DNA of 64,000 bases, from positions 6,634,001 through 6,698,000 of the forward strand of contig OZ024753.1 in the NCBI GenBank assembly GCA_964016885.1, in the 5' to 3' direction. Both the position numbers and the translations under genes were made by a program. Below, in pieces: positions 30,789 through 33,106 of the stretch (position 1 is its first letter; each line of letters starts with the position of its first letter). The notes under the pieces are model-generated. The model saw nothing but the letters and a program-made list of their open reading frames with translations, had not been told where the DNA came from and searched no databases. Origin of the DNA: Eledone cirrhosa. Taxonomy: Eukaryota.

Positions 30789-30789
<1 letters not shown>

Positions 30790-33105
30790 AAAACAAATAA
30801 CGAAACGAAATTAAATTTCGTTTCGTTTGTAACTCACTTTTGTATGACTGACGCTTAAACAATTAAGTTAAAGATGTACATCCATATATGTATACTGAAA
30901 TACTAGTATGTATATGAATACACACACGTATACATATGTAGATGTACCAAGTTTTTTCACTGGTCATTTTACTGTGAGTGGCCAGCTATTCTGTATGTAA
31001 ACACACAGACAAACCGGTTTTTAGAGTCATACTGGTTTTTGAGGAAACTTTTTTGAAAAAACTTGGTACATCTACATGTACATCTACATATGTATACGTG
31101 TGTGTATTCATATACATACTAGTATTTCAGTATACACATATATGGATGTACATCTTTAACTTAATTGTTTAAGCGTCAGTCATACAAAAGTGAGTTACAA
31201 ACGAAACGAAATTTAATTTCGTTTCGTTATTTGTTTTTATCGTCTCCGTTGAACCGGTACTTACTCACACTCTATGCAAATTAGTCTGCCCACTACTAAT
31301 TTTCATAGAAAAAGCATATAACGATATGTGCTTTTACGATTCTCTAGAGAGGCCGGAAGATAGGTAAATATTGCTGATGAGTTGTAACAACAACGAAACT
31401 AGTTCAATATTCCTTGTCTGGCTTTCTGAAGAATAGAGGAAAGGTGTTTCCTCAAAAACCAGTATGACTCTAAAAACCGGTTTGTCTGTGTGTTTACATA
31501 CAGAATAGCTGGCCACTCACAGTAAAATGACCAGTGAAAAAACTTGGTACATCTACATATGTATACGTGTGTGTATTCATATACATACTAGTATTTCAGT
31601 ATACATATATGGATGTACATCTTTAACTTAATTGTTTAAGCGTCAGTCATACAAAAGTGAGTTACAAACGAAACGAAATTTAATTTCGTTTCGTTATTTG
31701 TTTTTATCGTCTCCGTTGAACCGGTACTTACTCACACTCTATGCAAATTAGTCTGCCCACTACTAATTTTCATAGAAAAAGCATATAACGATATGTGCTT
31801 TTACGATTCTCTAGAGAGGCCGGAAGATAGGTAAATATTGCTGATGAGTTGTAACAACAACGAAACTAGTTCAATATTCCTTGTCTGGCTTTCTGGAGAA
31901 TAGAGGAAAGGTGTTTCCTCAAAAACCAGTATGACTCTAAAAACCGGTTTGTCTGTGTGTTTACATACAGAATAGCTGGCCACTCACAGTAAAATGACCA
32001 GTGAAAAAACTTGGTACATCTACATATGTATACGTGTGTGTATTCATATACATACTAGTATTTCAGTATACATATATGGATGTACATCTTTAACTTAATT
32101 GTTTAAGCGTCAGTCATACAAAAGTGAGTTACAAACGAAACGAAATTTAATTTCGTTTCGTTATTTGTTTTTATCGTCTCCGTTGAACCGGTACTTACTC
32201 ACACTCTATGCAAATTAGTCTGCCCACTACTAATTTTCATAGAAAAAGCATATAACGATATGTGCTTTTACGATTCTCTAGAGAGGCCGGAAGATAGGTA
32301 AATATTGCTGATGAGTTGTAACAACAACGAAACTAGTTCAATATTCCTTGTCTGGCTTTCTGGAGAATAGAGGAAAGGTGTTTCCTCAAAAACCAGTATG
32401 ACTCTAAAAACCGGTTTGTCTGTGTGTTTACATACAGAATAGCTGGCCACTCACAGTAAAATGACCAGTGAAAAAACTTGGTACATCTACATATGTATAC
32501 GTGTGTGTATTCATATACATACTAGTATTTCAGTATACATATATGGATGTACATCTTTAACTTAATTGTTTAAGCGTCAGTCATACAAAAGTGAGTTACA
32601 AACGAAACGAAATTTAATTTCGTTTCGTTATTTGTTTTTATCGTCTCCGTTGAACCGGTACTTACTCACACTCTATGCAAATTAGTCTGCCCACTACTAA
32701 TTTTCATAGAAAAAGCATATAACGATATGTGCTTTTACGATTCTCTAGAGAGGCCGGAAGATAGGTAAATATTGCTGATGAGTTGTAACAACAACGAAAC
32801 TAGTTCAATATTCCTTGTCTGGCTTTCTGGAGAATAGAGGAAAGGTGTTTCCTCAAAAACCAGTATGACTCTAAAAACCGGTTTGTCTGTGTGTTTACAT
32901 ACAGAATAGCTGGCCACTCACAGTAAAATGACCAGTGAAAAAACTTGGTACATCTACATATGTATACGTGTGTGTATTCATATACATACTAGTATTTCAG
33001 TATACATATATGGATGTACATCTTTAACTTAATTGTTTAAGCGTCAGTCATACAAAAGTGAGTTACAAACGAAACGAAATTTAATTTCGTTTCGTTATTT
33101 GTTTT

Positions 33106-33106
<1 letters not shown>
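30789..33106 (+). mobile_element. 467-bp HHR tandem array 1 (retrozyme-like): 260-bp inverted partial unit plus ~4.4 direct units
   Basis: Period 467. HHR ATATTG-CTGATGA-GTTG(TAACAA)CAAC-GAAAC-TA-GTT-CAATAT at 31368, 31835, 32302 and 32769. Inversion at 31049-31054; (TA)n flanks. Confidence 0.85.
31368..31410 (+). ncRNA. Minimal type I hammerhead ribozyme (representative copy)
   Basis: Intact CUGAUGA/GAAA core, 6-7 bp stem I, 4-5 bp stem II, palindromic ACTAGT stem III; predicted cut GUU|C after 31404. Confidence 0.8.

Follow-up and report, generated by a model that had tools for sequence, protein, structure and literature searches.

The window, by which we mean the whole 64-kb stretch of DNA analysed, carries two arrays built from one 467-bp non-coding unit, with the arms of each array placed head-to-head. 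Outer ends are termed A where an arm stops at unit position 467 and B where it stops at unit 390-402. The features are:

28809-30789: left (TA)n tract of array 1, its interruptions opposite in strand polarity to those of the right tract over most of its length
30737-30789, minus strand: 53-bp TA flank, mirror-identical to the flank beyond the right A end
30790-31048, minus strand: left arm of array 1, unit 467 to 209 (0.56 unit), A end at 30790
31049-31089: junction of array 1, a filler of five T (31049-31053), then unit 298 onward
31054-33105, plus strand: right arm of array 1, about 4.35 units with four hammerheads, A end at 33105
31367-31411, plus strand: type I hammerhead motif, recurring every 467 bp
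32639-33105, plus strand: reference unit, positions 1-467
32675-32682, plus strand: octamer ATGCAAAT, unit 37-44, kept in sister families
32948-33021, plus strand: long hairpin, unit 310-383, its base just upstream of the B site
33035-33105, plus strand: tail from the B site to the A site (unit 467), including a 29-nt hairpin at 33068-33096
33106-34720: (TA)n tract to the right of array 1, enclosing an unrelated palindromic insert
48903-51395, minus strand: left arm of array 2, 5.34 units with five hammerheads, B end at 48903 (unit 396)
51394-52237, plus strand: right arm of array 2, 1.81 units with two hammerheads, A end at 52237

Mapping on the unit bore out the anatomy given in a preliminary description of this DNA: head-to-head arms, the T filler, a 12-nt duplication (31066-31089) near the start of the plus arm of array 1, and the GT microhomology (51394-51395) at which the arms of array 2 meet. 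The left arm of array 1 (259 bp) exactly matches the final 259 bp of the right arm and contains no hammerhead. All four outer ends enter TA microsatellite, and three of them (30790, 33105, 52237) lie, as described, at one point just 3' of the 29-nt hairpin, unit position 467. The fourth, 48903 at unit 396, is no stray end but the second fixed terminus, B; the end pairing of array 2 is B/A. Open reading frames of at least 200 aa with ordinary composition were not found in the window, nor any long frame in the unit, nor an RT plus GIY-YIG frame in the unit or the arrays, and terminal direct repeats were not visible in the locus maps.

Other repeats lie nearby. The palindromic insert in the right TA tract of array 1 (33770-34100) has a TA core and arms matching the 3' region of a Penelope-like family found at locus L280. 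A further head-to-head inverted element with unequal ends, unrelated to the 467-bp unit, lies in (TA)n at 28357-28809. Young tandem repeats with periods of 205, 48, 22 and 121 bp were detected by TRF at 11445-11874, 17744-18904 and 35572-35814.

The unit has a GC content of 35% and is strongly structured when folded as a circle (z -11 against shuffles). Its hammerhead comprises a stem I of 7 bp, a stem II of 4 bp and a 2-bp stem III within the palindrome ACTAGT; the triplet is GUU and the predicted cut follows position 31404. No match in the unit reached an Rfam gathering score. A relaxed search matched HH9 at 37.7 bits (E 7.7e-08), short of its gathering score of 52; the other relaxed hits, to sraA and to microRNA hairpins, were dismissed as chance matches to AT-rich hairpins. 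Covariation was assessed on 20 variants chosen from the commoner of 90, representing the family, its subfamilies and two sister families. Hammerhead pairing was kept in 90% of cells, compared with 21-45% in slid controls, and two-sided changes were found in 6 of 13 pairs, although the rows are related and the independent changes hence few. The base at the cleavage site was U, C or A, not G, in 220 of 221 locus-variants. Judged by these patterns, the hammerhead is under structural constraint and is predicted to cleave. Upstream of it, a TATA-like stretch lies 3' of the octamer ATGCAAAT, which we take to be a possible promoter element. An snRNA-type promoter has reportedly been found for newt satellite 2; a literature search for a link between the octamer and promoters returned nothing. 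Hammerheads with a short palindromic stem III are described as working in dimers (PMC4209133).

The unit belongs to a large dispersed family. Its 30-nt hammerhead core occurs in 5,212 exact copies in the 3.0-Gb genome (reversed-pattern control 0). Exact A-end/(TA)n junctions number at least 2,269 genome-wide (reversed-pattern control 0), and a stricter pattern gave 733 B-end/(TA)n junctions (control 0), a count for the forward strand alone, as reverse-strand matches were counted multiply. Near-identical units are also present in public sequencing runs of other organisms; the runs X1, X4 and X6 cover 29 of 29 bins. Terminus A is unit 467. Terminus B, found by mapping fetched loci on a multimer of the unit, is unit 390-402 with modes at 396, 398 and 401, which places the two sites 65-77 nt apart. 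The defined termini of the preliminary description thus hold well beyond the window, since two base-precise ends recur at thousands of dispersed loci. Its single shared 3' terminus does not: there are two, each used once per insertion in 61 of 63 cases.

This pairing was counted on 78 two-armed junctions, in 63 of which both ends lay at A or B. The remaining 15 had one end at neither site or beyond the fetched stretch, several of them being A/B insertions with an internal deletion or a nested insertion. Also left out were L207m and L198m, which ran off, L228 and L229, which are A/B with internal deletions, and L226m with one B/other and one B/A insertion. Of the 63 classifiable insertions, 61 were A/B, whereas L183 was B/B and array 1 was A/A; the binomial p against free pairing of the ends is 2e-16. 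Forty loci without a pattern partner had been added to enrich for exceptions, and removal of the four loci chosen as paired by pattern lists (L230-L233) left 57 of 59. An unselected sample, the first 27 loci of contig C1 from the hammerhead listing regardless of their ends, contained 21 A/B, five with A and another or no second end, one with B only, and neither an A/A nor a B/B. In five of the 21 the second arm, 8-17 nt long, was read by eye, and in one a nested RTE LINE interrupts the insertion. When coordinates alone were used, an A end lay opposite 39 of 59 B ends, one locus was B/B, and the 95 A ends included no contiguous A/A pair, the single candidate being two insertions. Besides array 1, the exceptions to the pairing are L183, the composite B/B of L216, and L148, a diverged pair of an autonomous family with like ends. 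A tabulation of the sampled arrays, along the lines suggested beforehand, agrees on fixed termini, inversion as the norm and TA flanks, but gives two termini instead of one.

Two of these loci have features of their own. An A arm of L051 harbours a nested RTE-type LINE (3447-8211) whose 1,040-aa frame is intact. L216 (2144-4883) is a four-armed composite with B at its outer ends and a central fold-back at the 29-nt tail hairpin.

The sites and junctions show further marks of insertion. TA is present on both sides of 43 of 51 A/B insertions, so that (TA)n flanks together with inversion are indeed the norm. A self-complementary (TA)n site, which the preliminary description had assumed, is not needed: at non-TA or partly TA sites, where target duplications can be read as they cannot in pure (TA)n, duplications of 12 bp (L031), 12 bp (L065) and about 11 bp (L052) were found. 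Among the 61 junctions, 30 have microhomology, 23 a filler and 8 are blunt; microhomology or filler, as noted in the preliminary description, is present at 53. Between units the difference is 0.59% across the junction and 0.58% within an arm, while insertions differ from the unit of the window at up to 52 of 467 sites (at most 13%). Hence, both arms derive from one event and one haplotype set, and the proposal that they were copied from one template is upheld by the haplotypes shared across the junction. No signal was obtained for copying of the same unit series from the outer ends in both arms (same-index 0.62% versus different-index 0.59% unit difference, 17 of 29, Wilcoxon p 0.76).

Array 1, which had served as the model example, is the sole A/A among the 63 classifiable insertions, and a secondary duplication accounts for it better. 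The tracts on its two sides run in opposite polarity; in contrast, all 8 informative A/B insertions, among them array 2, keep their polarity. The string formed by its end plus flank is present at two places in the whole genome, both being its own ends; 3' transduction from a donor locus was rejected as a source of the shared flank because the string occurs nowhere else. Since the left arm and 53 flank bases mirror the right end, array 1 is likely a secondary inverted duplication, with an assembly error as the alternative. Most likely, an ordinary B/A insertion came first, and its right end and flank were later copied in inverted form over the left end, possibly through template switching between the inverted arms. 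That the left end alone is a fold-back artefact is a minor possibility, to which the exact mirror, noisy stretches in the left TA tract and the absence of the junction from the public run X1, not known to represent the assembled individual, all lend some weight. Against it, the left arm is no mirror of the adjacent sequence, as it lacks the 12-nt duplication and the 2-bp insertion of the first right-arm unit.

The genome offers many candidate helpers. A Pfam GIY-YIG search yielded 10,598 candidates, and autonomous RT plus GIY-YIG elements are present with a CxxxxCxxC linker of the type described for Neptune/Nematis-type Penelope-like elements (PLEs) (PMC8557442). One autonomous family has (TA)n ends at two sites 68 nt apart, with one end per arm in L118, L122, L050, L165, L055 and L075. 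In a second (L128) the ends are about 55-60 nt apart, and in the sister retrozyme F2, which has a 420-bp unit, 57-60 nt apart and mostly one per arm. The partner search, run over GIY-YIG loci, long-ORF loci and hammerhead variants that share the palindromic stem III, brought up sister retrozymes and several PLE families, none homologous to the unit. A PLE partner homologous to the unit was not found in 30 GIY-YIG, 20 long-ORF and 57 hammerhead loci, a sample covering a small share of the 10,598 candidates, and we therefore infer the helper from anatomy. On that basis, mobilisation in trans by a PLE protein is likely. A 30-nt match of 80% to a Neptune family (E 0.2, antisense, within its ORF) was dismissed as chance.

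The hammerhead searches also yielded related elements. F2 (420 bp, L133-L148) and F3 (about 434 bp, L153-L181) have the same palindromic stem III, two fixed ends and a related upstream region; a long F2 array is found in L278-L279, and one hammerhead pattern with 1,689 matches represents mostly F3. In L280 (807-9223) an inverted duplication has 3.6-kb arms (96%) with a broken PLE ORF; about 1.4 kb of downstream flank with an old lone hammerhead is present on both arms. It may be a two-armed 3' transduction or a DNA-level duplication. Dozens of lone, divergent hammerhead-like motifs with an ACTAGT stem III were seen in unique DNA (L241-L297), and the corresponding pattern has 190 matches in the genome against 8 in the control. 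These lone motifs are probably relics of old elements.

Metazoan non-LTR retrozymes have been described as tandem hammerhead repeats giving circular RNAs, with a PLE helper proposed (PMC7229834). Their descent from pLTRs has also been proposed, and 8 of 9 Xenopus elements were without cleavage (bioRxiv 10.64898/2026.07.22.740005). Like the 467-bp unit, the retrozymes of both sources are short, AT-rich, non-coding and tandem, carry a type I hammerhead, occur dispersed from dimers to long multimers and have target duplications of more than 4 bp. The unit length is slightly above the 150-450 bp of PMC7229834 and within the 51-972 bp of bioRxiv 10.64898/2026.07.22.740005. With a hammerhead in each unit, a GC content below 50%, no coding capacity and dispersed copies with target duplications, the family shares these properties with retrozymes. 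Fixed termini, head-to-head arms and (TA)n targeting, found here, are not described in the available text of PMC7229834 or bioRxiv 10.64898/2026.07.22.740005, in which the word 'inverted' occurs not at all and once, respectively.

PLEs have inverted copies, a one-ended tail and a bias to microsatellites (PMC8557442, PMC3846280). As here, endonuclease-bearing PLEs leave an inverted 5'-truncated copy beside a direct copy, with the tail at one end, and share microsatellite targets and a hammerhead with a short palindromic helix III (PMC8557442, PMC3846280, PMC4209133). Target duplications are 8-12 bp in PLEs and 11-12 bp here. A head-to-head inverted copy with a one-ended tail was found in 61 of 63 insertions, as in a non-autonomous derivative of a PLE, although the tail of 65-77 nt exceeds the 30-40 nt described for PLEs (PMC8557442). 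Unlike PLEs, the unit has no ORF, both arms are multimeric, and the unit matches no pLTR sampled. MRC1, a non-autonomous Chlamys element, resembles the family as a PLE derivative with multicopy head-to-tail insertions; Chlamys elements form a green-algal clade described as having no canonical hammerheads, and those of the MRC1 type resemble an autonomous partner at the 3' end (PMC8557442), whereas none was found for the unit in the loci sampled.

The kinship with inverted Penelope pseudo-LTRs, suggested in the preliminary description, is borne out. Twin priming of LINE-1, which likewise leaves an inverted segment and a microhomology junction and uses primers from both target strands, as proposed here, has a poly(A)-primed 3' end and a variable internal second site. 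The present insertions have no poly(A) and a second site fixed at 390-402; furthermore, their arms overlap in sequence and both can be multimeric.

The closest biochemical parallel for the two sites comes from Poseidon, whose purified protein, predicted to be dimeric, cleaves and extends both strands and starts at two internal sites bounding the tail (PMC11167929). In vitro, the Poseidon PAc target is AT-rich and hammerhead cleavage is dispensable (PMC11167929). Poseidon has no strand preference for the start site in vitro, whereas the ends differ in 61 of 63 insertions here. As its strands share the start sites equally, the pairing of one of each is not predicted by that alone. Our literature search, which covered neither supplements nor subscription papers on Drosophila Penelope, found no account of this anatomy or of the one-of-each count in retrozymes. 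Retrozymes, the Penelope link and one-ended tails are known already. Since these pieces are known separately, the family is a variant that sharpens the mechanism rather than a new class.

We consider it probable that the arrays are non-LTR retrozyme insertions made in trans by a Penelope-like, probably Neptune-type, RT-endonuclease using two fixed priming sites on one RNA. Transcription of arrays would yield a template spanning unit boundaries, either a circle formed by cleavage and ligation or an uncleaved multimer. Staggered nicks, to judge from the target duplications about 12 bases apart, would open AT-rich DNA, mostly (TA)n. One strand would prime at A, just 3' of the 29-nt hairpin, and the other at B, 65-77 nt upstream, aided by 1-5 nt of target homology; the use of one A and one B end is what was counted above. 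The end points of both cDNAs would vary, with the region around unit 376-406 the commonest, and the two would be joined 5' to 5' via microhomology or filler. Arms may subsequently lengthen by tandem block duplication, as observed for several long arms.

As to the template, most arms extend across the predicted hammerhead cut (A, 49 of 61; B, 51 of 61), and arm ends are not enriched at it (4 A and 3 B of 61). A linear monomer ending at the cut was therefore rejected. Twin priming on a linear read-through multimer, with the arms copying different stretches, is the circle-free variant of the preferred reading and comes near to an even chance. The missing enrichment at the cut agrees with it, as does the finding that unprocessed RNA is the main substrate in vitro (PMC11167929). 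In L045 and L034, two unit haplotypes alternate in both arms, with eight linked sites in L045, so that the template held at least two different units, again as in a multimer. On the other hand, uniformity over the two arms together with private variants was seen in L063 (20 units, 0 variants), L231 and L230; it calls for a single-unit bottleneck and favours a circle. On a linear multimer, the enzyme primed at A would run until it meets the upstream B-primed site. Twelve of 61 A arms do have their 5' end at unit 376-406, where 4.0 would be expected (p 6e-4), a pile-up that a second enzyme occupying this region would produce. However, B arms stop in this region too (6 of 61, with the tiny arms in addition; Fisher p 0.20 for the comparison with A arms) and the long hairpin starts at 383, so that a general pause explains the ends equally well. 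The multimeric arms noted in the preliminary description are present but in part reflect expansion after insertion, as block duplications of 8, 6 or 3 units were found in long arms of L207m, L228 and L078. For this reason they are no proof of a circular template, and the case they make for a rolling circle is weakened. A circle made by the hammerhead and an uncleaved multimer appear about equally probable. A more specific version of the preferred reading, in which a dimeric Penelope-type enzyme holds one ribozyme circle by the tail hairpin, applies A and B to one strand each and performs twin rolling-circle reverse transcription, is put forward tentatively and at clearly less than an even chance.

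Single priming followed by cDNA fold-back or antisense self-priming, with the second end set by endonuclease resolution, is improbable. Self-priming has been put forward to explain head-to-head inversions of Penelope that have palindromes at the junction (PMC3846280), and fold-back or self-priming to explain the PLE tail (PMC8557442); the shared haplotypes would follow trivially. Both arms end within 15 nt of one unit position at 8 of 61 junctions (expected 4, p 0.048), some of which are palindromic (L034, L070, L066, L204). In contrast, the unit positions that meet are unrelated at 53 of 61 junctions, which disfavours fold-back as the main route. Moreover, both arms exceed one unit at 21 of 61 junctions, and the tail boundaries in vitro are start sites of reverse transcription (PMC11167929).

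That the arrays are ordinary satellite DNA, dispersed and inverted through events at the DNA level in unstable (TA)n, is highly improbable. Block duplication does expand long arms, DNA-level inversion is the likeliest origin of the left end of array 1, and L280 is a large inverted duplication with flanks. Against this reading stand the two termini, precise to the base and repeated at thousands of dispersed loci, the target duplications, the constrained ribozyme, the A/B pairs pointing outward in polarity without exception and the kept flank polarity in all eight informative insertions. Artefactual fold-back in long reads or in the assembly, for which array 1 alone provides arguments, is scarcely credible for the family, because its arms end at different fixed sites with fillers and target duplications, and differ by about 0.6% on average. 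Independent reads, recommended earlier as a check, did not bear out the junction of array 1, which is missing from X1; contigs of X1 do contain four other filler-bearing strand-switch junctions (depth 4-19, one contig each).

Hence, the retrozyme family is real and young, its insertions bear the Penelope footprint in full, and the preliminary description recognized the right class of mechanism but took an exception for the rule. The origin of tandem and inverted PLE insertions and of their one-sided tail is called unresolved in PMC8557442, and retrozyme mobility is a hypothesis in PMC7229834 and bioRxiv 10.64898/2026.07.22.740005. Thousands of young, readable 467-nt insertions provide direct footprint evidence for retrozymes using the Penelope pathway. 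They turn the two start sites known in vitro into a sharp prediction, one per target strand and once per insertion, and the 467-nt element offers a minimal RNA substrate for reconstitution. If a dimer acting on a circle is responsible, every insertion would be born as two back-to-back concatemers through strand-displacing rolling-circle reverse transcription, two-ended TPRT would ordinarily leave a PLE tail and an inverted pseudo-LTR, and the tail length would be set by the pair of enzyme and RNA.
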